Numbered from the stretch's first letter, positions 40,508 to 60,851 are shown. The stretch: DNA of 64,000 bases from an uncultured cyanobacterium (GCA_963719515.1 CAVRCJ010000011.1:416001-480000); one strand, 5' to 3'. Notes: generated from the letters alone by a model not told the origin. Made by a program: numbers and translations.

Positions 40508-41236
40508 TCAGGGTTCAGCGTAGCTCATTTCACGAGCTATCCATGACTGAAACAGGCGATCGCGAATGAGCTGGTGAACCTCATCGGTTAGTTCAGCGGG
40601 GATGCGCTCTTCGACGAGCAACAGATCGTATCCCTGCTCAGATTTGACGGGACCAATTAGCTCTCCCATCTGCCGGCTAAAGGCGACGGCAGCGATCTGC
40701 GGGGGCAGAGCCCAGCGGTGGTGACGGCCTTCATAGCCGCACTTTAGCCGCCTCGTAGTATCTGTATCGTATAGGTGCGCTGCCTCATAAAAGCTGATCT
40801 CATCTTCCTCAATTCTATAAAACAGCTCTTGGGCAAGGGCGCTATAAGGGACAACGATGCGGTAGAGCGTAATTTGCTCAAATTCAAGCTGGTGTTCAAT
40901 AAAGTAAGCCTCAACCTCTTCGTCAAATAGAGACCCAGCGACATTTTCTGCCAGCAGGCGATCGCGAATTCCGAGTTCCCAGAGCTCCGGGGTAATGAGC
41001 TGATCGGCTAGCCAAGCGTAGGTATCGCTGGCATTCTCGAGCTGCAGCTGACGGCGTTGACGATCGGCCTCGGCCTGAATCTCGTCCGGCTCTACCGTAA
41101 TGCCTCGCTCTTGAGCCGCCTGTTCAACAATGTCTTGAGAAAAAATGCGCTCACAGATCGCTTTGAACTGCAGCTGACGCTTGAGAAAATTGACGATCCT
41201 GTCAGAATCGGATGTGATATCGGTCAAACTTTTCAT
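40508..41236 (-). CDS. PpiC/parvulin-type peptidylprolyl isomerase of the T1SS locus
   Basis: EIQAEADRQR, LAQELFYRIEEDEISFYEAAHLY, IGPVKSEQGY. Confidence 0.8.
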   Translation of the reverse strand: MKSLTDITSDSDRIVNFLKRQLQFKAICERIFSQDIVEQAAQERGITVEPDEIQAEADRQRRQLQLENASDTYAWLADQLITPELWELGIRDRLLAENVAGSLFDEEVEAYFIEHQLEFEQITLYRIVVPYSALAQELFYRIEEDEISFYEAAHLYDTDTTRRLKCGYEGRHHRWALPPQIAAVAFSRQMGELIGPVKSEQGYDLLLVEERIPAELTDEVHQLIRDRLFQSWIAREMSYAEP

Positions 41237-42487: not shown

Positions 42488-42573
42488 TGGAGTTATCTTT
42501 CCTCAATTAACTGTAAGCTTTAGAGGTAAAAACCAACAGCTTACTAATAGTAAATCAAGCAAAATAGGCATGT

Positions 42574-42586
42574 GGCCAAATTGGCA
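42574..42586 (-). promoter_or_regulatory. Palindromic box GGCCA-AAT-TGGCA upstream of the RTX gene
   Basis: TACTAT 21 nt downstream on the minus strand. Confidence 0.7.
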
Positions 42587-43084
42587 GATTCTTTAATTCA
42601 CGCAAGTTTTTAGCTATTCAATCGAGAGGAAAGACGTAGCCTAACTCGCGCGAATCATTCGGAGTTTTCGCATCTAAGACGTTAATTTCCTTTAAATCGT
42701 AGGTGCTCAAGCGGTGCGTCTGGCGATCGTGGTGTATGCTGACTTCAGTAAGTTCGATAAGGCCGTTGTTCGTTTTTTATCTTTTGCGAAGCAGCTAAGC
42801 CGATGTAAATTCGGAACCTTGCCTGCTGGCATTACTTCTGAGACTGATTCAGCAAAGCTAAAAATCAGGCTACCGGTGGTGAATGAGTTACTGCGTTTGC
42901 CGATGCTTATACCAAACCGGGTTTTGCAAACGCAGGGGCTGATGCTGTAGCCCTTGGCGACATTACCCTAGACGGGGTTCAATCTGCACCTTTCAAAACC
43001 AGACTGGCGATCGCCTCTGCTACAGGCTCGTGGTCAATTATTGTCCTACGCTTTTATTATCGCAGCGTTTTAGCGTCGGGTAGA

Positions 43085-43097
43085 TGCCAGTTTGGCA
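43085..43097 (+). promoter_or_regulatory. Palindromic box TGCCA-GTT-TGGCA upstream of small protein 1
   Basis: TATTCT 23 nt downstream. Confidence 0.7.
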
Positions 43098-43286
43098 ACC
43101 TGGACTGTGCTTAATACTGATATTCTACGTGAATCTTTTGAATCAAATAGTTACGTAAGTGAGTGCTCAAAATTAAACGTATGGATAGGCGCTCTCAGCG
43201 GAAAAATTATCCTGATGGCATCGTTCACTTATAGCTCCTTACTTGTTTGATCCGTACTAAATGAAACACTGGAGTTGCCAAAGCCA

Positions 43287-43613
43287 ATGAAAATTATAGA
43301 CCTCGATCACTGCAGTGTTCTAACGCCAGCATATTCTCAAAGCTTGACTAGTCAGTCTGTCGCTGGTGGGGCAGCGGCCACCACGGATGTCGATACCTAC
43401 GCTGGTGATGGCTTAGCCTCTGCCTCTGCTAGCGCAAACGCGCTTGGTGATTATTCAAGAACATATACATCAACTCGAACAAGCAGCCGTAAAACCCGTC
43501 ATGGCTCGTTTTCCTGGGCGATCGCTATTGCGCACTCAGTCGCGCGTTCGAGGTCTGATGTCGCCATATCTTCGTCCTTGGAGAGTTCCGTATCGTCAAA
43601 CAGTTTTCGTTGA
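43287..43613 (+). CDS. Small secreted protein 1 with double-glycine leader
   Basis: MKIIDLDHCSVL...SQSVAGG|AAATT...; core ASASASANALG...TYTSTRT. Confidence 0.8.
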   Translation: MKIIDLDHCSVLTPAYSQSLTSQSVAGGAAATTDVDTYAGDGLASASASANALGDYSRTYTSTRTSSRKTRHGSFSWAIAIAHSVARSRSDVAISSSLESSVSSNSFR

Positions 43614-43853
43614 TGCTCTGTCTCAGAAAGAATAAGGTCTATTAAGACAGACAAGTTAGATCAGCTGATGGTTTATAGAAGATGAGGGCAAGCTTTCGAA
43701 CGGTGGGTAGAGAATTTCGCGGCTGGCGCAAAAGACGCTGTCTCTAAGGCTCTGTCTAAGGCTCTGGGCAATCACATTAACGCTATTTGGTACTTCACCA
43801 CCGCTACAACGCATCCCTTACGCCTTCAGGACTACTAGCTAGCTTCTATATCG

Positions 43854-43866
43854 TGCCAAATTGGCA
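43854..43866 (+). promoter_or_regulatory. Palindromic box TGCCA-AAT-TGGCA upstream of small protein 2
   Basis: TATTAT 22 nt downstream. Confidence 0.7.
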
Positions 43867-43942
43867 CCTCTCTATGCTTATAGGTATCTATTATTTCAGT
43901 ATGTCACTTTAGTAAACTGGCGATGCGACAAGGAGCATAAAG

Positions 43943-44230
43943 ATGCATATTACTGACTTGGAACACAAACAAACCTTATTGCCGCAGTCATCAATAACAG
44001 GAGGAGAACTGCCGGTTGAGTTTTTCAGACAAAGAATCAACGCTTTAAAGCAAGGAATTAGTCTCTCGTCTCAAGATATAACGTCTCGTAGGCGGAATTT
44101 TGACGGCGGAAGCTTGGCCTCTAGCCGAAGCTCTGGAGGTAACTTTTCGCGAACTAGAATTCTTGTTCCTACTGGGTCAGATGTTACCGCCGTTGTTATT
44201 CAAGCAGTTGCGCCCAGCTCAAACTCTTGA
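43943..44230 (+). CDS. Small secreted protein 2 with double-glycine leader
   Basis: AAGGAG RBS; MHITDLEHKQTLLPQSSITGG|ELP... Confidence 0.78.
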   Translation: MHITDLEHKQTLLPQSSITGGELPVEFFRQRINALKQGISLSSQDITSRRRNFDGGSLASSRSSGGNFSRTRILVPTGSDVTAVVIQAVAPSSNS

Positions 44231-44686
44231 GCAAGGGGCCATAGTTAAGCGATGCTAAACCTCGTCTGACTCGAAAGTTGCGGTTTTTGTCTGGCTTTGA
44301 AAAGCTCTCAAGCGTAGCGCTTCAGCTTTGAAGCGCAGACTCCCAAAAACTCCTGGCCTCAACATAGACGACATGGCTTATTGAGGGGAGCGCCCAGGCA
44401 CTCCTCTCAATAGCTATTTCATCCGTATGCATTCACCCATAAATCAGGCGTTTAGAGGTCACCTATAACTATGGGCGACCTCTAAACGCTCTTTAAAGGC
44501 ACCACAGTGTCGGTGCTGAGATAGTCTTTTGGAATAATTTTGATTTGATCTGGTCTATTGGATTCATAAGAAGCGGATAAAACAATAGCACACCAAGCCG
44601 CTTATCGTCTTTATATGGACATAAAAACATAAGCGCCTTGAGGTTAGTTTATTATCAATTTAAAGACGCCTATTTGCCTTAAATTC

Positions 44687-44699
44687 TGCCATTTTGGCA
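44687..44699 (+). promoter_or_regulatory. Palindromic box TGCCA-TTT-TGGCA upstream of small protein 3
   Basis: TATTAT 22 nt and TATAAT 25 nt downstream. Confidence 0.7.
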
Positions 44700-44786
44700 A
44701 CCAATAAATCCGTATTTTAATTATTATAATAGTGTCAGTAATAAAGCTGACAAGTTTAGCAAAAGACATTGAATGGAGACAAAATC

Positions 44787-45104
44787 ATGATTATTTTTGA
44801 CCTAAGCTATCTTGAAACTGCTGGTGAAGACGTTCTTGGCAGCCGCGGTCGCCGGCGTCATGGTGGTGGTTACGATGTTGACGGTCGCATCAACATCAGA
44901 AAGCATGTCAATATCAACGTTAACGTCTACGAAACCTACGATAAGGCTGTCTATGGATACGTTGAGATTTACGGCAATCTAGCTACTGCCGAAGCTGGGG
45001 CTTCTGCTAAGGGATACAACTCGCTCTCCGAAACCATCACCTTTACAGATGCCACATACGGCGGCTCCGAGTCCTACAGTGGTTCCGTCTCTGCCGTTAA
45101 TTAG
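44787..45104 (+). CDS. Small secreted protein 3 with double-glycine-type leader
   Basis: GGAGA RBS; MIIFDLSYLETAGEDVLGS...HGG; beta-patterned core VNINVNVYE, ATAEAGASAKG, SESYSGSVSA. Confidence 0.82.
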   Translation: MIIFDLSYLETAGEDVLGSRGRRRHGGGYDVDGRINIRKHVNINVNVYETYDKAVYGYVEIYGNLATAEAGASAKGYNSLSETITFTDATYGGSESYSGSVSAVN

Positions 45105-45138
45105 TTGGTTAGCTGGCTAAAATGTAGAGTTTCGAGCT

Positions 45139-45260
45139 CAGATAAGCTGACTCCAGATGCCATTCTGTGAGTCAGCTTATCTGTGGCATTGGCTATATCG
45201 AGACCAAAGTAGAAAAAGGCGCTGAAGGTCGTCTACTCTGCTTGAGTGACCTTCAGCGCC
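45139..45260. terminator. Two hairpins between convergent genes
   Basis: CAGATAAGCTGACTC/GAGTCAGCTTATCTG (45139-45183) and GGCGCTGAAGGTC/GACCTTCAGCGCC (45218-45260, preceded by an A run). Confidence 0.7.
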
Positions 45261-45307
45261 GCGCTATTTATTTATAGCCATGTACGAGCAATCTTAGGCA
45301 GCTATTT

Positions 45308-45661
45308 TTAACAGGCTTCGTCGAAATAAGACCATAAAGAATAACAGCTAGATATTCCACCAACTACACCGGAAGACTGATTCCTGACTGAGTCTATGTA
45401 GTTGAGGTCACGAATAGAATGAGAGGCTTTTCGAGAAGATACTTGTTCTTTCTGAGCAGATTTAGGCTGCTTCAAGCAGTTATCCTTCATCAATCTGTTG
45501 TACGTCCTGTAGGGAATATAATGGAGTGGGTTATAGCCTGCAAACCGCAAGATCAAGACGCAGGCCCAGGAATATTTACCGTTGAGGATGGCCTCAACGA
45601 CCTGCGTAAACTGCTCGGGGGTCATTGCTTTACTCAGTTCGCGATCGCAATCTAACGTCAT
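45308..45661 (-). CDS. hetP: HetP-family protein
   Basis: [45 protein letters not shown]. Confidence 0.92.
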
Positions 45662-45733
45662 GTGTAATTGCCTCCTTTAAAACCGGTTCTAAAAAGTATT
45701 TGATCAGCTATATCTATAGGGTTGTGAATAGCA

Positions 45734-47113
45734 TTAGAGATTGATGCCGCCTTCCTGAAGCTGTCGAATGGGGTCAAGCAGCAAATCGAGAATGCGCTGC
45801 CGCCGAACCACGATCTCAGCGCTAGCGGTTTGTCCTGCCTGAAGCACAACGGGCTGATTTTCGTGAATAACGTGATTTCGCTCTAGAGCAATATCGACGT
45901 CATAGATAGCCCCGAGCTGCTCATTCACTTCAGCATCAGGGGAAATCGAAATGACGGTCCCCAAAACCACGCCATAGTCCTGATAAGGAAAGGCGTCGAA
46001 CTTGATGTTGACTGCCATCCCTTTTGTGATCAGGCCTGCTTCGCGGCTGGGCAAAGCTGCTGAGAGAATTAAAGGGGCTTCGCTAGGTGCAATCTCAGCC
46101 ACGGTCTGACCAGATTGCACCAGCTCTCCAGTATTTTCCACATCCAGCGACAGTACTAGGCCATCGAAAGGCGCATAGATGAACATCTGATTCAGCTTTG
46201 TCTCTGCTGCTTTGAGCAGCGTTTCTGCCTCTGCAAGGCTAGCCTGAACTGTTTCAGCTTCCCGCTCGAGCTCGTGGAGCCGTTGCTGGAGTTCAACCTG
46301 GCTGCGCTGGCCCTCGGCCTGCTGGCGCATGAGCTGCGACCTCAGGCGATCGCTCTCCACTAAAGTTTTCTCTAAATTGCCCTTGCTCTGCGTGATGGCC
46401 TGTTCGCTCTCGCGAATTGATTGCTCTACCTGAAATAGCTGGTCGGCGGCGATCGCCCCCACCTCAACGAGCGGCTGCAGCCGTTCAAGGCGCATCCTGT
46501 GGGCGTCCATTTCGGTGTCAAGATGCCCTAGCATTTGACGGGTGGTGCTCGCGTCCGTCTCGGTCTCCACAATGGCCTCCCGCTGAGCCTCAACGTCAGC
46601 TCCCGCGATCGCCGAGCGCACGCCCGTCTCAAATTGAGTGCGCTCAACTAGCGCCTCAATCTGCAAAAGCTGAGAGCGATAGGACGCGATACTCTGCTCT
46701 AGCCGCTCAATCTCTGTCTGCTGTAGGCGGGTATCTAGAGCGGCAATCAGCTGTCCCTTTTCGACCGCATTCCCTTCCTCAACTAGGATTTGCGCCACCT
46801 CGCCCTCAACCATGGGCTGCAGCTTGTGAGTTTCCCCCAAGGGCACGAGCTGCCCTTGGGCGTGGCTGACGTGCTGGACTCGCCCGAACCAAGCCCAGCA
46901 GCCAACGACGCAGCTGAACGCAACCCCACCCAATAAAAGCCGTTTTGACAGCGCTGCCGGGGGGCGATCTAACGTCGATTGAAGGGCGGCGCTCCAGACA
47001 GAAGGTGGCTGAGTATCAGATTTGACTGCAGAGGACGATGAAGACTGCGATAATTGTGTCCTAGGCTCATTCAGGGTAGCTGCTGTAGAGCTAGCAGACT
47101 GAGATGAAGTCAT
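45734..47113 (-). CDS. HlyD-family type I secretion membrane fusion protein
   Basis: WAWFG, AQGQLVP, coiled coil, KFDAFPYQDYG, LLDPI. Confidence 0.92.
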   Translation of the reverse strand: MTSSQSASSTAATLNEPRTQLSQSSSSSAVKSDTQPPSVWSAALQSTLDRPPAALSKRLLLGGVAFSCVVGCWAWFGRVQHVSHAQGQLVPLGETHKLQPMVEGEVAQILVEEGNAVEKGQLIAALDTRLQQTEIERLEQSIASYRSQLLQIEALVERTQFETGVRSAIAGADVEAQREAIVETETDASTTRQMLGHLDTEMDAHRMRLERLQPLVEVGAIAADQLFQVEQSIRESEQAITQSKGNLEKTLVESDRLRSQLMRQQAEGQRSQVELQQRLHELEREAETVQASLAEAETLLKAAETKLNQMFIYAPFDGLVLSLDVENTGELVQSGQTVAEIAPSEAPLILSAALPSREAGLITKGMAVNIKFDAFPYQDYGVVLGTVISISPDAEVNEQLGAIYDVDIALERNHVIHENQPVVLQAGQTASAEIVVRRQRILDLLLDPIRQLQEGGINL

Positions 47114-47348
47114 AATCAATTCCAACTAATGGACATTGCAGGCGATCGCGAGTGGTGCGGCTTCGTCGCCCATTTGAGTAGGGGTCAGGTCACTCGAAAG
47201 TGCTGCCGGTCAGAAAGTTCTGTCAATGCTTGCCCAGGCTATGGGAGCCAAAAAGTCTCCTGAAAGACATCAATACTGCACGGCAATGGGCCAATGCCGT
47301 AGATAGACCGTATATAGAAAAATCATAGAGGGCTCCTTGGGGTGGGCC

Positions 47349-47361
47349 TGCCAAAATGGCA
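47349..47361 (-). promoter_or_regulatory. Palindromic box TGCCA-AAA-TGGCA upstream of hlyD-hetP
   Basis: TATGAT 21 nt downstream on the minus strand. Confidence 0.7.
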
Positions 47362-47519: not shown

Positions 47520-50500
47520 CTAAAGATTGAGCTGCTGCTGGACAAGATGGTAGTACAGCCCTCGCTGAGCCATGAGAGCGTCGTGGTTTCCTGTTTCCAC
47601 CAGAACGCCTTTGTCTAACACCAAAATTTGATCGGCGTGGCGCACCGTTGAGAGCCGATGGGCAATGACAAAAGTCGTGCGATCGCGCCTGATGTAGGCT
47701 AGGTTGGCTTGGAACCGGCGTTCGGACTCCGTATCCAAAGAGCTAGTAGCCTCATCCAAAATCAGAATGCGCGGCTGACTGAGCAGGGCCCGGGCGATCG
47801 CAATTCGCTGGCGTTGCCCTCCCGACAGAGTTGATCCCCGTTCGCCAACGGGAGTGCTGTACCCCAGAGGTAGGGATTGAATAAAACCGTGGGCCTCGGC
47901 GAGCTTGGCCGCCTCGATTGCGTCTTCTAGCGAGAATTCCGGGCGGTGAAGCACGATGTTGTCCAGAATGGTGCCCGAAAATAGGAAGCACTCCTGAGGC
48001 ACCACCCCCAGCTGCGATCGCAGAGATGAGGGAGAGACATGGCGAATGTCGTGTTCGTCGACTGAAATTCGGCCCTGGTCGGGCTGATACAGCCCTTCCA
48101 AGAGCTTCACCAGCGTGCTCTTGCCCGAGCCGCTGCGCCCAACAATTGCCGCAGTTTGCCCCGCACTCAAACTGAAGGAGATATTTTGCAGCGTGTTGCG
48201 TTCGGCGTCGCTGCCGTAGCGAAAGGTGACATCCTCAAACACGACGTCGCCCTCAATAGGCGGCATCGTCATCATCGGCTGGCCCGACACTTCTTCGGGC
48301 CGCGTCTCAAAGACGTCGTTCAACCGCTCCACAGAGATGAGCACTTCTTGCAGCTCGTCCCACAGGTCTGCGAGTGCGATCACCGGGCTGATGACGTAGC
48401 CGATCATCATGTTAAAGGCCACAAACTGACCGATGGTGAGCTGGTCTTGAATCACCAAGCTTGCCCCGTACCACAGCAACAGGGTGCTGCCCAGCGTATT
48501 GACCAAACCGTTCGCGGCCTGCAGCCCAATGCCAAATTTCTGCCCTCGAAACCGCACGTTCAGCTGCCGAGTGAGGTGCTCTTCCCACTGCCACCGCACC
48601 TCCCGCTCGGCGGCAGCGGACTTGATGCTGTGGATGCCGGTCATCATTTCCACGAGTGATGAGTTTTGGTCGGCAGCTTCCTTAAAAATTTGCCGCGAAA
48701 TTCTGCGGAGGAAGGGCGTCGACCCCAAGGTCAGCAGGACGATGGGCGGGATTAGCAGCAGCACCAGCAAGGTCAACCGCCAGTTGTAGTAGAGCATTAG
48801 CCCCAGGTACACAAATCCGGTGACAAAGTTGAGCCATGCTAGAACCACCTGGCCAATCAAAAACCGCTGAATCTTTTGATTTTCTTGAACGCGGGTAATG
48901 ATATCCCCCACTCGCCGAGACTCAAAGAACTTGAGCGGCAGCGAGACGGTGTGACGAATAAACCCGCTGATCAGCGTCAGGTCGAGGCGATTGGAGAAAT
49001 AGCTCAGCAGATATTGCCGCACCGACGACATGGCAATTGACCAAAGCCCAAAGATAACCAGCCCGATGGCGAAGACGTTCAGCGTCTCCAGGCTTTTTTG
49101 CACCACCACCTGGTCTAAAATCAGCTGAGTGAATAGCGGCGTCACCAGCCCAAACACCTGAATGAGGAGGGAAACGCCAATCACCTGCAGCATCAGAGAC
49201 CGGTAGGGCAGCAGTGCCCCCACATAGCGGCCTAGGGTGGCCTGTTTGACGGTGGTGTCGTATAGGGCATCCGTGGGGTCGAGCAGCAGGCCATAGCCGG
49301 TCCAGTGGGAGGTGAAATACTCTCGTGAGACGGACTGCCGTCCCAATACCGGATCGGCGATCGCCACCTGATCCCCCGTGATCCGGTACACCACAATGTA
49401 GTGGTCTCCCTGCCAGTGGGCAATCCAGGGGTTGGCCTGCTCGGCCATGCGCCCCAGGCTCGCCCGTACGGGACGGGCCTGGTAGCCCAATCCCTCTGCC
49501 GCCTTGGCCAAACTCCGCAGGGTTGCCCCGGCGCGCCCGACGTTAGCCTGCTCCCGCAGAAAGTTTAGGGGAAATCGCTTGCCCCAGTACTGGGAAACCA
49601 TTGACAGACAGGCTGCGCCACAGTCAGACGAACTCTGTTGCTCAACCCAGGGATACCGGTGCAGCCAATCTAGTAGTTTCCGGTTGACGGGTTTGGGGAA
49701 AGCGGGCGATCGCGGCGCTGAATAGGGCTCTGGCGATCGCTCTGGCGCTGAGGACGCGGTTGCCGAAAGGTGCCGGTCCTCACGGTTTGGAAGCACAGGT
49801 CTAACCCTGATTTCAGAACTCGCTCCCAGAGAGGCCCCAGATGGATTTGCCTGACTTGTACTCAGGGTTCTACCTGAGTGGGGCGACTCTGCTTCGCAAA
49901 TGCTAGGAAGCCAATAGGCAACAACTTCAGTTTGGGTCGCGTGAACCGGCTGCTCGTCCGAATAGCTCCAGCTATCTCCCACTTGCAGCGGGGCGAGACC
50001 TTGGCCGTTGTTGGGATGCCGCTGAACCACCCCTTGTCGAATCCACCACCGGCCGTCTGAGCGGTAAGCGTCAGTAGAAAGGTCGGTCTGGGGCGCGATG
50101 CGGTGCTCAACTAGCTGAGAGAGCCAGGATTGAAGTTGATAACTGTGGGTGCCTGACAACGCCGTCAGACTCTTAAAGAAAATGAGCTGCTCTCGCTGCT
50201 GGGTCTTGGTTTGGAGGTAATCTCGCAGGGCCGGACATTGGTCTAGCAGGACTATCAGCGTAGCTCTCGAAACGACAAGAAGCGTGGCTTGACTAGCCGC
50301 GATCGCCCGGTAGGGTAGCGCCGTTTCTGTAAAGACGTCATCACCGCCGAACATGCCATCGGCCTGAAGCAGCTGCGCCGTCACGTCGCGCGCGCTTGCA
50401 GGGTTGTGGCACAGCAGCCGAACGCTGCCCTGAACGACGAAATACAGGGCAGCGTTGGCCTCTTCAAGGGAGCGGCAAATGTCGTCTCCTAGGGAGTAGT

Positions 50501-50654
50501 CTTTGAGCGTAATGTTGGCAAGCAAGCTGTCGGATATTGCAGACGCGCTTGGGTCTACCAAACTCATCAACCGCATTACGGTCTCAGGAACCTGAGTGAC
50601 GCCTATGGTATCAGGAATAGGCGAATCTTTTCTGATACCAAGATCGTAATTCAT
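47520..50654 (-). CDS. Peptidase C39-containing ABC transporter with N-terminal cNMP-binding-like domains (HetC/PteB-like)
   Basis: QQSSSDCGAACL, HWQGDHYIVV, IADP (Cys/His/Asp present); GRSGSGKST, LSGGQRQR, ILDEAT. Confidence 0.93.
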   Translation of the reverse strand: MNYDLGIRKDSPIPDTIGVTQVPETVMRLMSLVDPSASAISDSLLANITLKDYSLGDDICRSLEEANAALYFVVQGSVRLLCHNPASARDVTAQLLQADGMFGGDDVFTETALPYRAIAASQATLLVVSRATLIVLLDQCPALRDYLQTKTQQREQLIFFKSLTALSGTHSYQLQSWLSQLVEHRIAPQTDLSTDAYRSDGRWWIRQGVVQRHPNNGQGLAPLQVGDSWSYSDEQPVHATQTEVVAYWLPSICEAESPHSGRTLSTSQANPSGASLGASSEIRVRPVLPNREDRHLSATASSAPERSPEPYSAPRSPAFPKPVNRKLLDWLHRYPWVEQQSSSDCGAACLSMVSQYWGKRFPLNFLREQANVGRAGATLRSLAKAAEGLGYQARPVRASLGRMAEQANPWIAHWQGDHYIVVYRITGDQVAIADPVLGRQSVSREYFTSHWTGYGLLLDPTDALYDTTVKQATLGRYVGALLPYRSLMLQVIGVSLLIQVFGLVTPLFTQLILDQVVVQKSLETLNVFAIGLVIFGLWSIAMSSVRQYLLSYFSNRLDLTLISGFIRHTVSLPLKFFESRRVGDIITRVQENQKIQRFLIGQVVLAWLNFVTGFVYLGLMLYYNWRLTLLVLLLIPPIVLLTLGSTPFLRRISRQIFKEAADQNSSLVEMMTGIHSIKSAAAEREVRWQWEEHLTRQLNVRFRGQKFGIGLQAANGLVNTLGSTLLLWYGASLVIQDQLTIGQFVAFNMMIGYVISPVIALADLWDELQEVLISVERLNDVFETRPEEVSGQPMMTMPPIEGDVVFEDVTFRYGSDAERNTLQNISFSLSAGQTAAIVGRSGSGKSTLVKLLEGLYQPDQGRISVDEHDIRHVSPSSLRSQLGVVPQECFLFSGTILDNIVLHRPEFSLEDAIEAAKLAEAHGFIQSLPLGYSTPVGERGSTLSGGQRQRIAIARALLSQPRILILDEATSSLDTESERRFQANLAYIRRDRTTFVIAHRLSTVRHADQILVLDKGVLVETGNHDALMAQRGLYYHLVQQQLNL

Positions 50655-51291
50655 GGTAAGCCTCGGAAATAAGGGGTTACATTGACGTCAATCTAGCCGG
50701 ATCAACTGGAATCCTATTTGCGAAGTCTGGAAATCGAATGGAGAACAGAGCCTATCTATTGGGATCTAGAGCAGTTCTTAAAATAGAGCCATTACTATTT
50801 ACGGCCCCTTACCGCCGAAGGGCACTGTCACGGCATGAGAAAAAGCCGCTGATGTATTATTAACTTTCATGTTTAAAGTTTGCTTAAATTGAATGAATTA
50901 GTTGGCAAATACAGACGGAGCGTAAACGAGAGATCTAAAAAGTTACAGAAGGTATCTCAGTTTAAAAAGTCCTGAAAACTCCTTGCTGCACTGCTGCTAG
51001 CGCCAAACCTTTAATTTACGTACTCTGTATTTTATTATTTAATTTGTATAGGCTATTTTCCCTGACATGAGCCTTCTATGTCAATTCAATGACTCAATAT
51101 AAAACATTATTAAGACATTTGTAGTCTTGTTTTACTGATGAAAACAGCTTGCCGACCTAACACCAACTGGTAAAGACGTAGCTATCGGTAGAAGCCTCTT
51201 AGATCACCCGTCTACTTTCTAGGACAGGGTTACTCAAAGCTTGAACTGTTTCCTGAGTCGATGACCTACGATCGCCTCTCTCTTTCGGCAT

Positions 51292-51837
51292 CTATTCGCT
51301 GATGCAGCGTGGCTTAATAGGTTCAGCAGGATTACCGGCATAAATGGTCATGGGCTGAAGCGATCGCCCGGTGACGCTTCCCAGCCCCAGTACTGCGCCT
51401 TTGGCAATCGTTACGCCGGGACCGATGACGGCCTTAGCCGCTATCCAGGCGCTAGATTCGATGGCGATGGGGGCAATTTTGAGCGAGAAATGGGGATGGC
51501 TCCAGTCGTGGTTGCCGGTGCAGAGATAGACGCCTTGGGAGAGGCAGACATTGTCGCCGATGGTCACCTCGGCCAGGTTGTCTATCCAAGCGTCTTCGCC
51601 AATCCAGCTGTGGTCGCCAATGGTGAGCCGCCATGGAAACTTGATGCGCACGCCGGGCTTGATGCGCACGCCGGTGCCGACGGTGGCTCCGAAGAGACGG
51701 AGGGTTTTGACTTTGAGAGCGGAGAAGGGAAGGAGATGGCTTTGGATGAGAGGGCTGCCAAGAAAGTACCAAAGAAGCTGTTGGAGGCGCACAGCTCCCG
51801 GGTTGTAGGGGCTGGTGGTGTAGTGACTGAGATGCAT
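51292..51837 (-). CDS. wcaF: WcaF-family polysaccharide acetyltransferase
   Basis: IKFPWRLTIGDHSWIGE, LCTGNHDW, hexapeptide repeats. Confidence 0.9.
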   Translation of the reverse strand: MHLSHYTTSPYNPGAVRLQQLLWYFLGSPLIQSHLLPFSALKVKTLRLFGATVGTGVRIKPGVRIKFPWRLTIGDHSWIGEDAWIDNLAEVTIGDNVCLSQGVYLCTGNHDWSHPHFSLKIAPIAIESSAWIAAKAVIGPGVTIAKGAVLGLGSVTGRSLQPMTIYAGNPAEPIKPRCISE

Positions 51838-52128
51838 CTATCTATTAAGCAAATTTTTGTTTCTCTGGAAACAATAGTCCGGACACTTTTCTGGACAAGT
51901 GCCGAAACCATTGATTTCTCGTTGACCGAGCTGCTGTAGAAGAGGCTTGAAACCCTCATTCCACCGTTAGCCATCAAAAACTGTCCGGAGTGCCACCTGA
52001 AAGCGCTGTACCAGCGCTTTCAAGTGGCACTACCCATTTCAGCAATAGGAGCAAGCTGATGCTTCTTGCCCCTGTTGCTGAGTAACACAGGAAAGTAGGG
52101 TGAGCCCTACCTTCCCCGTGCTCCAAAT

Positions 52129-52692
52129 CTAGGCCTCTTCTACAGCGGCCTCGCGGCGCTTGCGGCGGGCAGCTGCGGTCATACCCACTACTGCCGCGAT
52201 CGCCCCTGCAGTAGTGACTGGCTCGGGAACGGGTTCATTGACGGTAAGAGGCTCTGCGGCAGGATTAAATCCACCGCCCCTGACCGCTAGAAAGTCGCCT
52301 GCACCAGGGTCAAAAAAGGTAAAGTTAGTGCCACCTAATGAAAACCGAAAGAATTCGCCGTCAACGATATCTAGCTCGCCAGCGCCGTTTATCGCAAACA
52401 AGCCCGGATCAGAGAAGGTACCCGAATCCATAAACGGTCTTAAAAAGCTTACCGTGAATTCGCTGAGATCAGTCGGGTCTGTAAATTCGATACTGCCTTT
52501 AAAGGCTGGATTACCCAGTCCCGTATTGCCTGCAGTAGTTTGAGTAGTGAAACCGAACTTAACTGCTTGTGCTGGAGTGAAAAACCCTGCTGTAACGATT
52601 ACGGAAGAAGCTCCTAAGGCGGCGAGCATCACCTTACGGTTAAGCAGGCTGGCGCTAAATGTGCCTAAGTTAGAAAGTGGATTGCGAATCAT
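52129..52692 (-). CDS. PEP-CTERM sorting domain protein
   Basis: Signal peptide ending AQA; C-terminal VPEP, TM helix, RRKRR. Confidence 0.92.
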   Translation of the reverse strand: MIRNPLSNLGTFSASLLNRKVMLAALGASSVIVTAGFFTPAQAVKFGFTTQTTAGNTGLGNPAFKGSIEFTDPTDLSEFTVSFLRPFMDSGTFSDPGLFAINGAGELDIVDGEFFRFSLGGTNFTFFDPGAGDFLAVRGGGFNPAAEPLTVNEPVPEPVTTAGAIAAVVGMTAAARRKRREAAVEEA

Positions 52693-53235
52693 GGTTGTGT
52701 GTATAAGTTGATTACTGGACAATTAGTTACTGGACAATATAGATGCCCAATGTGGCGAGTCACCCTGACGTTAACCCGAGAATACCTAACCTCGTCTATC
52801 AAAGCTTGAGCAGAGCTACGCTTCGCCTAAATTGGTATGGAAGAATCCCTATACAGCTGTAGCTTTAGATGGATATATCGTCTGAATTTAGCTCAAGGTG
52901 TGGGCTAGCATCTTAAATCTTGGTTACGGCAATCTGCGACTTATCACGAAAGCCGTGTAGAGTCCCTAAAGTAGACGCCATTCCCAATAACACCGGCTAA
53001 AAGGGCAAGCGCAATCCCGGTATTGAGAAGAAATACGCTTATAGCCACGTTGCTGCTACTACAGCGTCTGAATTAGCAGTTGCACAACTGCAGCTTAACG
53101 CAGCCATGCGGCTTAGTACTAGGAAAACAATTGCGAATTCATGCAAATTTCATAGCACCTTTCCAACCTTAAGCCACAACAACTTTCCTAAGCAAAACGC
53201 TACTTTTCAACCTGGCTGATGCCTCTTTGTTATCG

Positions 53236-53991
53236 CTACACTCTTACCCAGGAGCTAGCTTGCCAAAGACAGTAAAACAGCGCTGCCGAAACTAATGCTC
53301 CCAAGCACCATTTGATGGCCGTTTTCAGTAAGTCTAAACGCTGACGCGATCGTAGCGCTAGAGCGGTAGAGTCGAGCTGGCTTTGCGCTTGTGTCAGCGA
53401 AGTAGACAGATCATTTTTCAGATCGGCGACGGGCGCATTGGGCGCTGCCCCCGCTACCCCACTGGCCTGTAATAGCGGAGTCAGAGACTCTACCGTACTT
53501 GCCTGCTGCAGCTGTTCACGGGCCTGCTGAATCTGGACTCGCTGCTGCTCCAGCTGGATAACAACGCGATCGCTGTTTAAGTTATTAACGCGGTAGGTAT
53601 TAATAACTCCCAGTGGCACTAACAGCACCAAAACCACAGCCTGAGCGAGACAGAGCCAAGAGAGTATGCGCAGTACAGGCAGCTCCCAAGCGGAGCGATG
53701 TTTCTCATACCCGGCAAAGATGAAAACAAATGCTAGTAGGGGAATTACCGTTTTCTCGACAATTTGCCCGAAGGTTTGAAATTCCCACTCAGGATTGAGA
53801 CCCTGAAATGGAATCATCATCACAACAAGATCAAAAACGGCAAGCACGAGCAGACCATAACCGAATAGACGAAATAGATTAATCGACTTGCTTAGAGATG
53901 CCTCTAATCCTTGAAGTTGCGTAGTAATACTCTGCTGCCATAGAGGCTCACCGGTAGGCTGCTGGTTTGAATGGGGATGAGTAGGGGTCAT
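53236..53991 (-). CDS. hpsJ: HpsJ-family protein (cyanoexosortase A-associated)
   Basis: GYGLLVL...NPEWEFQTFGQIVEK; four TM helices plus coiled coil. Confidence 0.85.
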   Translation of the reverse strand: MTPTHPHSNQQPTGEPLWQQSITTQLQGLEASLSKSINLFRLFGYGLLVLAVFDLVVMMIPFQGLNPEWEFQTFGQIVEKTVIPLLAFVFIFAGYEKHRSAWELPVLRILSWLCLAQAVVLVLLVPLGVINTYRVNNLNSDRVVIQLEQQRVQIQQAREQLQQASTVESLTPLLQASGVAGAAPNAPVADLKNDLSTSLTQAQSQLDSTALALRSRQRLDLLKTAIKWCLGALVSAALFYCLWQASSWVRV

Positions 53992-54033
53992 AAATAGTTC
54001 GATTGGATGAAAGTGACGTCGAAAGGAACAAGT

Positions 54034-54654
54034 TCAAATTTGCGGAAACTCAGGTTGCCAACGCGCATTGAGATCACGCCAAGCTGTCTCTAACAGCGGA
54101 AGCACTGTTTCTGCCCGCTGAGACTCTAGCGGTGTCGACAATGTGAGCCGTAAGCAACGAGGATCGCGAAACACAGCGGTCTGGTCCAGCGCTAAGGCCA
54201 TAACTCTCTGAGGTTGAACCGCCTGCCAGAGCTGGTTACGGCTGAACTGCTGCGCTGTGACAGTTGTCGTGCCATTTGGATTGATGCAGGCCGTTAAAAA
54301 GGCGGCTTCTTCAGTGACAAACAGTCCGTAGGAGCCAAGTTTTTCCACCTTACGGATCATTATCTCTGTCTCCGGAACGCGCCACTGATTTCTGATTTTG
54401 CTGGGCAAGTTTCCACCCTGCTGCAGAGTTGTATGAATCTTGAGCGTTGTCTCTTGATCGCGGTAGTAGTAAGTGTTGCTTCGGTCTACCTGTTCATGAT
54501 TGAACCACTGCCAGTCTGAGAGCGGCAGCTGCTCAGGCAAGACCAGTGGCGATGGCTTGACAGAAACAACAGGCGTCGTCAATGTTTTCACGAAGGTGAA
54601 CGCTGTTGCGGCACAGGCCATCCCCAGTACAAGGCGCGTAAGCATGGTAGGCAT
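54034..54654 (-). CDS. Cyanoexosortase A system-associated protein
   Basis: LPEQLPLSDWQ, ACINPNGTTTVTAQQF, DPRCL; directly after the exosortase. Confidence 0.85.
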   Translation of the reverse strand: MPTMLTRLVLGMACAATAFTFVKTLTTPVVSVKPSPLVLPEQLPLSDWQWFNHEQVDRSNTYYYRDQETTLKIHTTLQQGGNLPSKIRNQWRVPETEIMIRKVEKLGSYGLFVTEEAAFLTACINPNGTTTVTAQQFSRNQLWQAVQPQRVMALALDQTAVFRDPRCLRLTLSTPLESQRAETVLPLLETAWRDLNARWQPEFPQI

Positions 54655-54656
54655 TT

Positions 54657-55595
54657 CTATAGGGGAACTGGCTGCTGAGGGCTCTGAGTGGCGACGTCAA
54701 TAGACGGGAGTCTGTAGAGGTAAATTCCTATAAATAGACTCATCGCCACTAGGCTGAACAGGCTTGCTCCTTCTCCCTGGTGCCAGTAGCTAAAGCTGTC
54801 GCTCTGATTGGCGACAAGGATTGTGAGTAAGACTACACGTACGCCGTTGACAACAAAGGCTATCCCCATCGCGAGCAGGGGCGCGGCAACATTGGCCCAT
54901 CGCCTGACGGGAAAGACAATCATGAAGGCTAGACAAATGCACAGCAGGTGGCTGATGCTGCCGATGCCAGAACATTCTGCATAGACATCCACGCTCCCGG
55001 ACGGCAAGCTAATGACGGTGCCCTGCTGGCTGACGTCGAATCCGGTATACCACAGAATGGCGGTGGCAAACGCTGCCGTTAGCGGCGAAATGTCTACAAA
55101 CCAGCGAGGCATTAGCAGACTCAATGGCCCCAGCAACACCAGCAAAGTTAAAACTTGAGAGTGCCGCTGTATGCCTTGAAAGCCTTCTACTAGCAGAAGC
55201 AATCCCAGCGCGATCGCGATCGGTAGAATAGCGGGCGATCCCCCTGGCTGGCTGTACAAATATGCCTTAAGTAATATCAGTCCTAGGAGCAGGAGGCCTA
55301 TGCCCTTAGCGATATAGCTGCCAGTCCACTGAATTTGATTGCGACGTAACCAGACGAAGTAGCTTGTGATAGACCAAGGCAGCAGGCTGTGGTTAACAAA
55401 GTCAAGCTGAGGCGTTTTCGCGACCAAGCTCGCTTGAATGGCAATCAGACCGGCTGCTAGCGCCAGTATCCAGTAGCGCAGGGTGTGGAACTCATTAGCG
55501 GCAGGTGGTGTCGATGAAAGTAGCATGTCGGCAGGACTCTGCATAGGAGTAGGCATTATGGCCAAGGGCACAATACGGGCCCTTTCCAATTCCAT
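54657..55595 (-). CDS. crtA: Cyanoexosortase A
   Basis: Multi-TM; VYAECSG, NGVRV, YWHQGEG (Cys/Arg/His triad). Confidence 0.88.
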   Translation of the reverse strand: MELERARIVPLAIMPTPMQSPADMLLSSTPPAANEFHTLRYWILALAAGLIAIQASLVAKTPQLDFVNHSLLPWSITSYFVWLRRNQIQWTGSYIAKGIGLLLLGLILLKAYLYSQPGGSPAILPIAIALGLLLLVEGFQGIQRHSQVLTLLVLLGPLSLLMPRWFVDISPLTAAFATAILWYTGFDVSQQGTVISLPSGSVDVYAECSGIGSISHLLCICLAFMIVFPVRRWANVAAPLLAMGIAFVVNGVRVVLLTILVANQSDSFSYWHQGEGASLFSLVAMSLFIGIYLYRLPSIDVATQSPQQPVPL

Positions 55596-55673
55596 TACTC
55601 CCTACGTAGGGCTTGTGCTGAGTCCAGCTAAGTTTGGGCGTTGCTTACGCAATTTTTGGATATAGCTCTCTGC

Positions 55674-56441
55674 CTACTTCTGATTCTCATATTCGATGAG
55701 GCGAATGGAGAGCAGCGTTTCGGCTAGTATCCTTTGAAAGGCGTAATACCAGCCAGGCCAGCCGTCGAGGATACCGCGCTTGATAACAAGGCAGTATACA
55801 AGCACAATGAAGGGGGCAAGAACTTTGGTTTTGCGGATGCGATCGCCCACGCTCAGCTCACTGGTGGGGGTTCCAAGCAGCTTTTTGACTTCTAGCACCA
55901 TGTAGCGATCCTGCGCCCAGAGCCAGCGGCTCAGTGGCTTGCGATCGTCGTGGTAGACGTAGCTAGTGAGCTGGCCTGAGTTGCCATCCACTGCTAAAAC
56001 CTGGGTGTGACCGTCATCGATATAGTGGCTTTTTTGAGTGCGGTGAAGCACCTGGCGCGGAGGCAGGAGGGTGCCGCTGAGAGGTTTGCCGAAGACGCAA
56101 TATTTGAAGCGTATGAAGTAGCCGTCGTAAGAATCCTCTGGGGAAAGAACTTTTAGTTCGGCAATGAGGTCGTCGGACAAGACATAGTCGGCATCGAGGG
56201 AAAGGGTCCAGGGAGTAGTGACTTGCTCTAGACCATAGTTCCACTGGTTAGCGTGAGTGTCGAAGGAGCGCTGGAAGACTTCGACCTGAGGATATTTCTT
56301 GAGGATATTGAGGGTGCCGTCAGAGCTATATTTGCTGTCGACGACGACAATGCGGCTCGCCCAGGTTAGCTTTTGCAGGGTACGATCGATATTGGGAGCC
56401 TCGTTGTAGACAAGGATGAGGGGCGTGACTTTGTATAGCAT
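55674..56441 (-). CDS. Glycosyltransferase family 2
   Basis: YNEAPNI, SLDADY, HDDRKP. Confidence 0.9.
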   Translation of the reverse strand: MLYKVTPLILVYNEAPNIDRTLQKLTWASRIVVVDSKYSSDGTLNILKKYPQVEVFQRSFDTHANQWNYGLEQVTTPWTLSLDADYVLSDDLIAELKVLSPEDSYDGYFIRFKYCVFGKPLSGTLLPPRQVLHRTQKSHYIDDGHTQVLAVDGNSGQLTSYVYHDDRKPLSRWLWAQDRYMVLEVKKLLGTPTSELSVGDRIRKTKVLAPFIVLVYCLVIKRGILDGWPGWYYAFQRILAETLLSIRLIEYENQK

Positions 56442-56454
56442 TAAATTACTCCAT

Positions 56455-57143
56455 CTAGCTTGAAAAACGAACTTTAGAGCCAAGTTTAATGAAGTTTATA
56501 AAAACCTTGGATACAGCTGGAAGAGAGAAAATTTTGTCATCAGTTCTAGCAATAATTCTCCCGTCAAAAATTCGAAATCTGTACTCTTTTAGTAAGCTAA
56601 CAACTTCTTCCTTTTTGAAAAATTTGTCTAAGTAAACGGCCTTTGTCCGGATTTTCTTTAACCAGATTACCTGCACCTATTAGAGCTTCAAGCTCTTGGC
56701 CTTCGCCGTCGATTTTTATTATTAGAGAATTTCCTGCAAAGCCAAATGAATCTAGTCGTTTATATAGAATCTGCGTAGTAGATTTGTTTTCATAGTGATA
56801 CCCGGATGCATTCTCTACAGTTGTAAAGGTATGCAAAACAGTCCCATGTAGGAATTTAAGATTGCCTTCCTTATCCGATATGGCGTAGTTAAAAGCTTCA
56901 AAGCCGTATCTATGAGAATTTATCTCAAGCCTCTTATAAGTATCTGGGTTAGCTTCAAAAGCGTACACGGCGAGGTTATTTATTATGTTTTGTATCGGCC
57001 AAAAACGGAAGAAATACTTTTATATTAACGCCAACATCTATAAATAAATCTCCTGCCTCTATTAATTTTGAAAATAATACTTTAAATTCACCTTTAGTCT
57101 TTGTTTTGATTTCGAGCTACTCAGGACTAGAATCAATGTCCAT
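56455..57143 (-). pseudogene. Decayed FkbM-family methyltransferase
   Basis: FIDVGVN, YAFEANP and IKIDGEGQE lie in different frames; in-frame TAG at codon 9. Confidence 0.75.
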
Positions 57144-58324
57144 TTTTTAGCTCTTTATGAACAGTGCACTGATAGATCGCTACAAGCTGAGCTGCAACGC
57201 TCTCCCAGGTATAATTTCTCAAGACAAACTGTCGGGCGCGATCGCCCATCTCTTTAGACTCTTCAGGATGCTGAAGAACCTTTTCTAAAGCAGTAGCCAC
57301 TGACTCAATCGTCATACTCGCCACGTATCCTAGTTCGTGCATCTCGACTAGCGTCGACAGCGCGACCCCAGGCGTCGACACGACCGGAAGTCCTGCTGCT
57401 AGCGCCTCTAGAACAACAATTCCGAAGTTTTCAGAATATGAGGTTAGAGCAAAAACATCAGAGCCTTGCAGCAGCTGAGCTTTTTCGCTTCCTTGAACAA
57501 ATCCAGAAAAACGGACCCGATCAGACAGATGAGAGTTACTCACTAAAGCCTTAATACTATCTTCGTATGTCGGATCTCCGCTGCCGGCAATAATGAGCGT
57601 GAACCGATGGTGCTTTAGCTGTTCTGCTGCAGAAATCAACAGCTCTAGTCCCTTCTTGGGATGGATCCGAGATAGGAACAAAATGATGGGCTCATCCGAG
57701 GGAAGCTGGAGCTCGCTCTCGCAGCTGGCGGCGAGCATCAGGAATTTGATCGGGAACGTGAAGCCCATGGGGAATTGTCAGCATCGGTGGAGCCAACCCC
57801 AAATCAGCGATCTCTTCCTGCTCTAGGCTGGAATTAAGAAGTAGAGCTGAGCTGTGATTGAGATTTCCTCGCTCCGCAAGTTCAAGATAGACTTGCTTCT
57901 TGGCAGCACTTTGCTGCCTTGACCATTGACAGAGCAGACCATGGGGAGAGATGACATAGGGTACCTTTTTCAGGCGAGCAATGGCCATGGCAACGGTGGG
58001 AACGTAGGAGAACAGCGCATGAACATGGAGGACGTCATAGCGCTGAATGTTTTGCCATAGCCAAACGGTAAACTCGCGCGAGACAGCGTATTCTCGAACA
58101 GCGGCGCTGTTGGGGGAAAAGCGAGGGAAGAATTGAACTGGAACATGACGATATTGGCTGAAATAGCCAAGCGGCACGTCTAAAGTCTCAAGGCCATTGT
58201 CGTTTGTAGTTGCAATCTGTGCATTGACGTTATGGACTTGAAGTGCGCCAATCATCTCTAGTACAGCTTGGCTGACCCCTCCCCGAACATCGGCGACAGA
58301 AGGCGTGACGTGCAAAATTTTCAT
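57133..58324 (-). pseudogene. Glycosyltransferase family 4 with a +1 frameshift near 57712
   Basis: MKILHV...SPHG half and FLSRIHPKKG...SENFGIVVLEA half join into 396 aa when one base is removed. Confidence 0.85.
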
Positions 58325-58341
58325 GGTTCAATACTTCTGTA

Positions 58342-59748: not shown

Positions 59749-60851
59749 GCCGCTGCCTTGGAGGAACTGCTTTTAGGCGCGGACTGGTCTACCGATGGCG
59801 TTAGCTGCTGAAACAGTGCCATCCAGCGGGTCGTCCAGAGCGCAGCGCTGTAGGGAGCCGCCATCTGCTGCGATCGCTTTCCCCATTTAGGGAGACTATC
59901 GTGCTGCTGATGCAGAGCAAGCAGCGCCTGAGTGAGGGACGCGGCGCTGTCTTCAGCAACAAGCAGACCATTGTGCCAAGGGCGAACCACCTCCACCGCT
60001 GAACCACAGACTTCAGTGCAAACAATCGGTAAACCGGCGGCAGCCGCTTCTACAATCGCCAGCGGCCAAGGGTCAAAGCGGCTAGGCATGATAAACGCCC
60101 CTGCCTGCTGCCAAATCTTTGTCATGTCTGAGGGTTGAACAAAGCCAAGGTTTTGAATCCCAGGCTGGTCTAGTAATGAAGCTAATTCGCCTTTGCCGCA
60201 GCATACTAAGGGCCAGGGATCTGAGGTGAGGCGTCGATAGGCTTGATACGCTTCGACCAGAACGTCAATTGCCTTGACGTTGGTATAGCGACCCACAAAC
60301 AAGAAAGAGTGAGGCCAGAGCTGCTGTCGATGCTCATATAGCGGAGACCAAGCCTCGTAATCGATGCCGTAGAGCCCTCGCATGATTTGACTAGAGCTGA
60401 ATCCCAAACGGCGGGCGTATTGCCAACTGCGTTCGCCGGTAACCACCACATGGCTCATGCGCTTCAGATAAGTTCGCAGGGCAAAAGGCGCGAGTCGCTG
60501 CTTTGAGGTACCCCACCAGGGCGTATCCATACCCATAATAAATTTGACATGCCGCAGGGCGGAGTCAAAGGCGAGCTGGCGGTAGGGCGGATGAAGCCAG
60601 CCACAGAGCACAACAATATCGGGATTGGCGGCTTTGACGAGCTGTTTGATGAGTTGAGTATTGGACTGCTGCTCTGCCGTTAGGAGCTGGCAGGGAATGT
60701 CCTCCATGAGGTCATCGGCGAAAGCGGTGGCGCTGTGGGACTGGAAGGCGATGATGGTGAGATTGACATCGGGCTGTTGCTGGAGCGATCGCCAGCAGGC
60801 AGCCATGTAGCCGGAGATATCGGACCAGCAGAAGACGACGTTTAAAGCCAC
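59745..60851 (-). CDS. Glycosyltransferase family 4
   Basis: FLFVGRY, PSRFDPWPLAIVEAAAAGLP. Confidence 0.9.
   Translation of the reverse strand: MALNVVFCWSDISGYMAACWRSLQQQPDVNLTIIAFQSHSATAFADDLMEDIPCQLLTAEQQSNTQLIKQLVKAANPDIVVLCGWLHPPYRQLAFDSALRHVKFIMGMDTPWWGTSKQRLAPFALRTYLKRMSHVVVTGERSWQYARRLGFSSSQIMRGLYGIDYEAWSPLYEHRQQLWPHSFLFVGRYTNVKAIDVLVEAYQAYRRLTSDPWPLVCCGKGELASLLDQPGIQNLGFVQPSDMTKIWQQAGAFIMPSRFDPWPLAIVEAAAAGLPIVCTEVCGSAVEVVRPWHNGLLVAEDSAASLTQALLALHQQHDSLPKWGKRSQQMAAPYSAALWTTRWMALFQQLTPSVDQSAPKSSSSKAAA

Follow-up and report, generated by a model that had tools for sequence, protein, structure and literature searches.

In a 64,000-nucleotide (nt) stretch of DNA from an uncultured cyanobacterium (GCA_963719515.1, CAVRCJ010000011.1:416001-480000; hereafter the window, numbered from its first letter), we identified five copies of a palindromic box, TGCCA-N3-TGGCA, ahead of the genes of a locus that encodes a HetP-family protein. 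Each copy is followed in the direction of its gene by a −10 hexamer of the form TAnnnT at a distance of 21–23 nt, and the same arrangement recurs in the hetP loci of other cyanobacteria. The box is a real, conserved and apparently undescribed promoter element on a known type of gene cluster. Its geometry is that expected of a class II activator site, and the HetP-family protein itself is a candidate for the protein that binds it.

The box and its −10 elements in the window

A pattern scan of the window confirms what an earlier note on this DNA had claimed, namely five boxes, the first with one mismatch, and past each of them the TAnnnT hexamer that the note had given (Table 1). None of the five has a TAnnnT at 21–23 nt on its opposite side. 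The counts taken alone are not significant: the window holds 6 matches with at most one mismatch against 3.2 expected, a number reached by 11 of 100 shuffles, and the genome holds 8 exact matches with a spacer of three against 1–11 at other spacers and 5.6 expected. Four of these 8 exact matches are clustered in 4.3 kb of the locus, and a −10 element at 21–23 nt accompanies only 4 of the 16 exact strand-readings genome-wide, which are the four exact boxes of the window. The sixth one-mismatch match (1843-1855) has the core of box 1 and no −10 element at 21–23 nt, and we treat it as chance.

As a check, the earlier note had proposed motif searches on this genome and on the hetP loci of other cyanobacteria. 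A weight matrix trained on 175 sites of other genomes and scored over the 5.28-Mb genome places the five window boxes at ranks 1–5 of the whole genome. The site at rank 6, outside the window (G000:C1:113131), has two mismatches; TATATT follows it at the expected distance, and no clear target lies downstream. A generic promoter scan returned 8 sites, against 7.7 in shuffles, and recovered none of the five promoters, as expected of promoters that lack a −35 element.

Conservation in other hetP loci

Of 483 hetP loci in other genomes, the best 80 entered the comparison, which makes 81 loci with the window's own. Across the 81, exact matches number 161 at spacer N3, whereas each of the eleven other spacers (0–11) gives 0–5. 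An exact box is present in 70 of the 80 foreign loci, and the spacing is strict: TAnnnT lies at 21–23 nt from 142 of 158 distinct foreign boxes, against 8–30 at eight other offset triplets, and 7 of the 158 have a −10 element on both sides. Only 5 of 160 boxes fall inside open reading frames (ORFs) of at least 150 amino acids (aa), although such ORFs make up 66.5% of the DNA. On the 149 promoter-like sides, a −35 element (TTGACA with at most two mismatches) occurs twice, and a purine stands 7 nt past the −10 element on 107.

The consensus reads as an A-tract followed by Y-TGCCA-(A/T)3-TGGCA-R. Each half of the palindrome shows 94–100% conservation, the A-tract is one-sided, being present upstream of the box only, and boxes are kept before unrelated genes while their flanks diverge. 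The earlier description of a regulon of one locus is too narrow for an element that is conserved across hetP-bearing cyanobacteria.

Two local arrangements were also observed. Boxes recur at a 79-nt period, in up to four copies, before one cargo gene in L032 (10724-10961), L033, L046 and L063 (10624-10861). In four other loci (L049:8752, L051:10163, L062:8708 and L067:8709), a box with a −10 element lies inside the hetP frame, just past the conserved domain, and in L049 an in-frame ATG after it would give a leader-only product of 53 aa. An internal promoter and a coding coincidence are both possible explanations of the intragenic boxes.

Class of the site

In the class II NtcA and CRP promoters of cyanobacteria, the activator site is centered near −41.5, TAN3T lies about 22 nt downstream and there is no −35 element. 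The box shares this arrangement. With TAnnnT taken as −12 to −7, it spans about −47 to −35 with its center near −41, and the class II geometry that the earlier note had recognized extends from all five window boxes to 142 of the 158 foreign boxes. Because the distance is fixed, the −35 element absent and the A-tract one-sided, we consider a class II activator site, on sequence grounds, the highly probable identity of the box.

The note was also right that the motif is neither that of NtcA nor that of CRP. The NtcA site reads GTA-N8-TAC and the CRP site TGTGA-N6-TCACA, whereas the box has 5-3-5 symmetry with an odd spacer, and its regulon is narrow and tied to hetP loci. Membership of the NtcA regulon was rejected on the consensus, TGCCA-(A/T-rich N3)-TGGCA, and a 5-6-5 dyad of the CRP/FNR family on the spacing, which gives the 161 matches at spacer 3 and 2 at spacer 6. 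LysR boxes are AT-rich T-N11-A dyads usually centered near −65, often with the LysR gene adjacent. The box is formally T-N11-A, but it is GC-rich and centered near −41, and no LysR gene was recognized among the common ORF clusters of hetP loci, genome-wide LysR genes not having been screened. A sigma-HetZ (DIF1) promoter was rejected as well, since the box differs in sequence and spacing from the TCCGGA −35 element and 16–17 bp spacer reported for those promoters (PMC13342950). The motif was not found in the supplements for Nodularia or in the small RNA supplements for Nostoc (PMC3610870, PMC4734099), of which the Nostoc table consists of coordinates.

Genes headed by the box

We surveyed the genes downstream of 188 box-plus-−10 readings. 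The commonest are small proteins with an MII.DL.YLE...GG leader (59 of 188 by a strict pattern, with many more among 44 classed as other), followed by HlyD-sized, graspetide-like, RTX, PEP-CTERM and isomerase genes; for 58 of the 188, no ATG ORF lies in range. Counted by gene, a box with a −10 element lies upstream of 29 of 66 hlyD genes (searched from −450 to +120), 4 of 52 isomerase genes and 3 of 23 PEP-CTERM genes, and of none of 69 ABC genes or 81 hetP starts. The ABC gene is thus outside the regulon throughout, including in the window. The half-site that the earlier note had placed before the window's ABC gene is indeed present at 50903-50907, but it probably has no function given the foreign ABC genes, and it has neither a second half nor a TAnnnT at 21–23 nt.

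Graspetide-like precursors with repeated TTLALGEEGG cores are box-headed in L085, L116, L120, L149 and L051, so that the regulon takes in ribosomal peptide genes. In eight Nostocales loci (L035, L060, L066, L073, L075, L076, L079 and L081), the hlyD gene between the ABC gene and hetP is shortened or lost to graded extents. These loci still have boxes, either ahead of what is left of hlyD or beyond hetP, including cases in which no cargo ORF follows, and such loci (e.g. L060, L066, L073 and L076) retain both the HetP leader and the boxes.

A box-headed non-coding unit

In family f7, many boxes head a conserved ORF-less unit of 220–380 nt with a strong terminator at its end. The unit occurs in 33 of the family's 37 genomes and in none of 9 others. 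Of 72 matches to the terminator, 41 have a box upstream and the other 31 are opposite-strand readings of the same hairpins. The −10 element lies at exactly 22 nt in 36 of 40 distinct units, the other 4 being antisense readings in tandem arrays. The units share no common ORF, and 673 of 805 insertions and deletions are not multiples of three. Their conserved 5′ block starts 34–35 nt past the box, which is the predicted position of the transcription start site, and this coincidence is the best, if indirect, support for reading the box as part of a promoter. No Rfam match near the gathering score and no plasmid copy of the unit was found, and it was not found in the window's genome. Examples include L104:1536-1830 (G041:C1:3830157-3830451) and L221-L250, often in multiple copies, with tandem copies in L239 (G050:C31) and L247 (G267:C75).

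Distribution across genomes

Among 301 genomes of the phylum, 66 carry hetP and 113 carry the box-plus-−10 pattern. At least one site is present in 65 of the 66 hetP-positive genomes and at least two in 61, against 48 and 10, respectively, of the 235 hetP-negative genomes; as these genomes are kin and not independent, the tally is a description rather than a test. In G074, the exception among the hetP-positive genomes, sites with one mismatch lie before hlyD and before a cargo gene. Locus and pattern are gained or lost together within the genera g19, g21, g28, g39 and g60. Among hetP-negative genomes of the window's class, 19 have a match; none of the 18 sites read, in 14 of these 19, heads a leader-bearing gene or hlyD.

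An RDD-family gene with a box in two hetP-negative genomes and in G050 was considered as a hetP-independent member of the regulon and rejected as a coding artifact. The box there (L139:2864, L155, L117) lies inside an upstream ORF and spells the peptide MPFWQ..KAV.YYD, which mimics a box with its −10 element; this conserved peptide is a class of false positives for motif scans. No box with at most one mismatch and a −10 element was found in the microviridin cluster of pCC7120alpha or in the Chondrocystis plasmid cluster, and no hetP was found on plasmids.

HetP as a candidate binder

Where the earlier note held that no regulator gene lies in the locus, we find the statement doubtful, because HetP is there, has been described as a "nonspecific DNA-binding protein" that is needed for the chromatin immunoprecipitation peaks of sigma-HetZ (PMC13342950, 2026) and has a predicted three-helix domain that weakly resembles a helix-turn-helix (HTH). 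Among the 45 commonest ORF clusters of hetP loci, no conventional regulator was recognized from the sequences, and HetP, which is present by design of the search, is the only broadly recurring family recognized beyond transport, folding and cargo. Behind the strong sites of the window's genome, we saw no regulator gene. Going by the sequences, we see about an even chance that the box is a conserved dimeric class II activator site whose binder is the HetP-family protein of the locus.

The first domain of HetP is almost invariant in alignment. In the model, the predicted local distance difference test score exceeds 90 over about residues 11-60, with helices at 15-26, 30-40 and 51-62 and the remainder disordered. 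The third helix carries an invariant Y-R-T-Y-N-R, with R52, T53 and R56 in 58 of 58 proteins and N55 and K59 in 57 of 58. In a fold search, the closest solved structures are for the most part winged-helix, HTH and sigma-4 domains, and 24 of the 50 top rows have titles that name a transcription factor, a sigma factor or a winged-helix protein. Pfam searched with the domain at E ≤ 10 gave a single row, the winged-helix RTP, at a non-significant E of 0.21 (0.004 for the variant P0002). A search of the ESM Atlas returned HetP clusters only, and a profile search returned 319 representatives, of which the 150 among the matches listed are all 63–206 aa long. Natural variants, one of each, comprise a tandem domain without leader (P0002, 169 aa), a HetP-TPR fusion (P0046, 202 aa) and a HetP-EAL fusion (P0001, 321 aa); output domains are often found in such arrangements.

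Several observations weigh against HetP as the binder. The likeness of fold is weak, with a best Z of 4.7, a root-mean-square deviation of 2.6 over 54 residues and no Z of 5 or above, values below 5 reflecting, according to the tool, possibly just a common arrangement. Foldseek with the HetP model gave no match at E ≤ 0.001, and the best match to sequences of the PDB (E 0.29) is not significant. The DNA binding of HetP has been published as nonspecific, and its reported effect is on DIF1/sigma-HetZ promoters, which have a different motif (PMC13342950). HetP-GFP was localized near the heterocyst poles, and residues 29-44 were predicted to be a membrane segment (PMC4133259). Finally, hetP and an hlyD orthologue are never apart in the sample, and co-occurrence therefore cannot separate a binder from a regulon member: no HlyD match in 60 hetP-negative genomes is better than 1e-68, against 1e-112 to 1e-129 in three of four hetP-positive control genomes, the match in the fourth being split in two pieces.

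HetP also carries the leader of the cargo proteins in its C-terminal half. Against the leader profile, 29 of 58 HetP proteins reach at least 10 bits, as do none of 580 shuffles. A GG-leader motif in HetP, KIXDLXYLEX10GG, was already published in 2011 (PMC3140520).

Genes of the locus

Domain matches uphold the gene labels of the earlier note (RTX, three small genes, HlyD, HetP family and C39/cNMP ABC exporter; Table 1). The isomerase gene lies 82 nt downstream of the RTX gene, and we infer that the two are co-transcribed. Box-driven proteins similar to small gene 1 occur in L003, and proteins similar to small gene 2 in L003, L018 and L019. The window's HetP, encoded by the single hetP copy of its genome, consists of the predicted three-helix domain (about residues 12-63), a disordered linker and a leader-like motif at 83-102 that ends in GG. 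The catalytic motifs of the ABC exporter are intact, with Cys345 and the downstream His and Asp motifs. The AT content of the locus exceeds that of the flank on one side.

Next to the locus, 51292-60851 encodes a WcaF-type acetyltransferase, a protein with a PEP-CTERM-like tail (52129-52722), an exosortase-like gene set and glycosyltransferases, the PEP-CTERM-like, exosortase-like and glycosyltransferase labels coming from reading the sequences. No box was found near the window's PEP-CTERM-like gene, though PEP-CTERM genes elsewhere are sometimes box-headed.

Table 1. Genes, boxes and −10 hexamers of the hetP locus, in window coordinates
Feature	Position	Strand	Remarks
SurA/PpiC-type peptidyl-prolyl isomerase (PPIase)	40508..41236	-	PF00639, E 1.6e-8; family in 47/81 loci
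Ser/Ala-rich protein with RTX calcium-binding repeats, 389 aa	41318..42487	-	PF00353, E 2.4e-23; family in 12/81 loci
−10 hexamer TACTAT	42547..42552	-	21 nt past box 1
Box 1, TGCCAATTTGGCC in gene direction, one mismatch	42574..42586	-	Before RTX and PPIase genes; matrix rank 2 in genome
Box 2, TGCCAGTTTGGCA	43085..43097	+	Matrix rank 4 in genome
−10 hexamer TATTCT	43121..43126	+	23 nt past box 2
Small gene 1, 108 aa, Ser/Ala/Thr-rich, divergent GG-type leader	43287..43613	+	Leader profile only 1.2 bits
Box 3, TGCCAAATTGGCA	43854..43866	+	Matrix rank 3 in genome
−10 hexamer TATTAT	43889..43894	+	22 nt past box 3
Small gene 2, 95 aa, GG-type leader	43943..44230	+	Leader profile 7.1 bits
Box 4, TGCCATTTTGGCA	44687..44699	+	Matrix rank 1 in genome
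−10 hexamer TATTAT	44722..44727	+	22 nt past box 4; TATAAT also at 25 nt
Small gene 3, 105 aa, canonical MII.DL.YLE leader	44787..45104	+	Leader profile 28.8 bits
HetP-family protein, 117 aa, candidate box binder	45308..45661	-	NF037966, 119 bits
HlyD-family membrane fusion protein	45734..47125	-	Domain matches
−10 hexamer TATGAT	47322..47327	-	21 nt past box 5
Box 5, TGCCATTTTGGCA in gene direction	47349..47361	-	Before hlyD-hetP; matrix rank 5 in genome
ABC exporter with cNMP-binding and C39 peptidase domains	47520..50654	-	No box upstream
Lone TGGCA half-site before the ABC gene	50903..50907		Probably not functional

Discussion

If HetP is the activator, a dimer would sit at about −47 to −35, beside sigma region 4, and recruit holoenzyme with a group 1 or group 2 sigma factor, with transcription starting about 34–35 nt past the box. 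In the window, the predicted starts would fall near 42540 (-), 43133 (+), 43901 (+), 44734 (+) and 47315 (-). The invariant third helix of the N-terminal three-helix domain would be the part that reads the box. HetP would also raise its own synthesis, as hlyD-hetP stands behind box 5; only 29 of 66 hlyD genes are box-headed in the stretch searched, so such a feedback loop may not be general. The C39/cNMP exporter, expressed separately, would bind or cut the internal GG leader of HetP and so set the pool of active HetP, which would link production of the cargo to the state of the export machinery. The exporter would then engage its own regulator, and cleavage of HetP may mean either its activation or its removal. 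Such an engagement would fit two published observations, the rescue of a hetC peptidase deletion by hetP overexpression (PMC4133259) and the effect of HetC loss on transcription although HetC is no regulator, the HetC substrate being given as unknown in that report (PMC10986499). We put forward only tentatively the fuller proposal that HetP founds a new family of sequence-specific activators, which would act on its own operon, on genes for secreted GG-leader proteins and, in genomes of the Nostocales type, on a family of unannotated non-coding RNAs and be cut or held by the C39 exporter through its internal leader, with hetC-hetP as a co-opted secretion checkpoint.

The evidence for the element itself fits equally well a class II site whose activator is an HTH protein encoded elsewhere, HetP being only a regulon member and a substrate of the exporter. 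Cyanobacterial activators are often unlinked to their targets, and HetP has a cargo-like GG leader. Its binding, moreover, is reported as nonspecific (PMC13342950). We nevertheless regard an unlinked activator as possible rather than probable, since the regulon is nearly confined to one locus in the window's genome, where we saw no regulator gene behind a strong site, and the activator gene would have to track locus and pattern in g19, g21, g28, g39 and g60. The only HTH gene seen in related clusters is an IS630-like one that occurs in 4 loci and is absent from the window's genome. As a general regulator this gene was rejected: its locus on a Tolypothrix plasmid has no box with a −10 element, and homologues occur in 3 other loci, none of them here. 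The protein, an IS630-like HTH protein without catalytic domain, is encoded before a second C39 exporter (L132:4932-5504, and L035, L060 and L066 in some Nostocales), and it is possible that it is a domesticated regulator of that second cluster type.

An operator is an unlikely account, in which a repressor, HetP or another, would occupy −47 to −35 until a signal such as HetP cleavage or export removes it. Operator positions normally vary, and here the distance is fixed at 21–23 nt in 142 of 158 boxes; the −35 element is found on just 2 of 149 sides, and promoters without one look activator-dependent. These points stand against the ability of a palindrome touching the −35 position to block RNA polymerase and a report, citing Videau 2016, that two Anabaena HetP homologues are negative regulators of commitment (PMC9045159). 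Quite improbable, in our judgment, is an upstream element for an alternative sigma factor. The 3′ half TTGGCA resembles TTGACA, the spacing to the −10 hexamer is fixed and cyanobacteria have sigma factors with insertions, such as sigma-HetZ (PMC13342950), but a spacer of 21–23 nt is too long for recognition of the sigma-70 type, both halves of the palindrome are conserved at 94–100%, 7 of 158 boxes have −10 elements on both sides and the −10 element is the housekeeping TAnnnT. We give hardly any weight to chance or to functionless remnants of local duplication of the small genes. In favor of that reading are the window and genome counts, which lack significance when taken by themselves, the higher AT content of the locus relative to one flank and a coding peptide that can mimic the pattern. 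Against it, 70 of 80 foreign loci have kept the box, placed in non-coding DNA ahead of unrelated genes, and its spacer and distance are strict even as the flanks diverge.

The window locus has the features of the group II bacteriocin clusters of cyanobacteria: a long C39/cNMP ABC exporter, HlyD, SurA, GG-leader precursors and, as often in such clusters, HetP. Wang, Fewer and Sivonen (2011, PMC3140520) described the same gene set, including HetP with KIXDLXYLEX10GG, and treated HetP as a precursor; "promoter" occurs 0 times in the main text of their report, and we found no common promoter element or regulator described there. The hetC-hetP genes of Anabaena/Nostoc PCC 7120 share the domain order of the ABC protein and the HetP family, but hlyD is missing there and HetP is a developmental factor under HetR whose binding is called nonspecific (PMC10986499, PMC4133259, PMC13342950). 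The ebfG-pteB operon of Synechococcus elongatus PCC 7942 comprises co-regulated small secreted proteins with a GG motif and a C39 exporter, for which a positive activator was postulated and left unnamed (PMC11345509, PMC12267927); the likeness is one of output only, with no evidence here for hetP or the box in that system. No prior description of the box was found in the literature searched by titles and the starts of abstracts, and subscription papers, figures, Tables S6-S7 of PMC12267927 and the supplements of PMC3140520 could hold one.

Secretion-coupled regulators whose activity is set by an export apparatus include FlgM and the RRNPP peptide sensors, which are HTH-TPR proteins. The proposed HetP is alike in that its pool would be set by the exporter, and one HetP-TPR fusion (P0046) exists on the HetP side. 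It differs in having no demonstrated homology to them and in that HetP would be an activator with its own internal C39 leader. If the proposal is correct, the combination of HetP as activator, an internal leader and an exporter outside the regulon would be new, the leader itself being known.

Even if another protein binds the box, the element marks a regulon that has apparently not been described before and that occurs in 66 of the 136 genomes sampled in the window's class; as a tag it reveals unannotated secreted proteins and a conserved non-coding transcript. For cyanobacterial engineering, the element and its activator would also make a compact candidate pair of orthogonal activator and promoter. 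Since 1994 hetP has counted as a heterocyst gene to which no molecular function is assigned, and the box offers a precise DNA probe for specific activation by HetP or its paralogues. If HetP binds the box, its molecular job in the development of nitrogen-fixing cells becomes directly testable, and if the proposed mechanism is true, HetP would be both the missing substrate of HetC and the link from HetC to transcription in heterocyst commitment.

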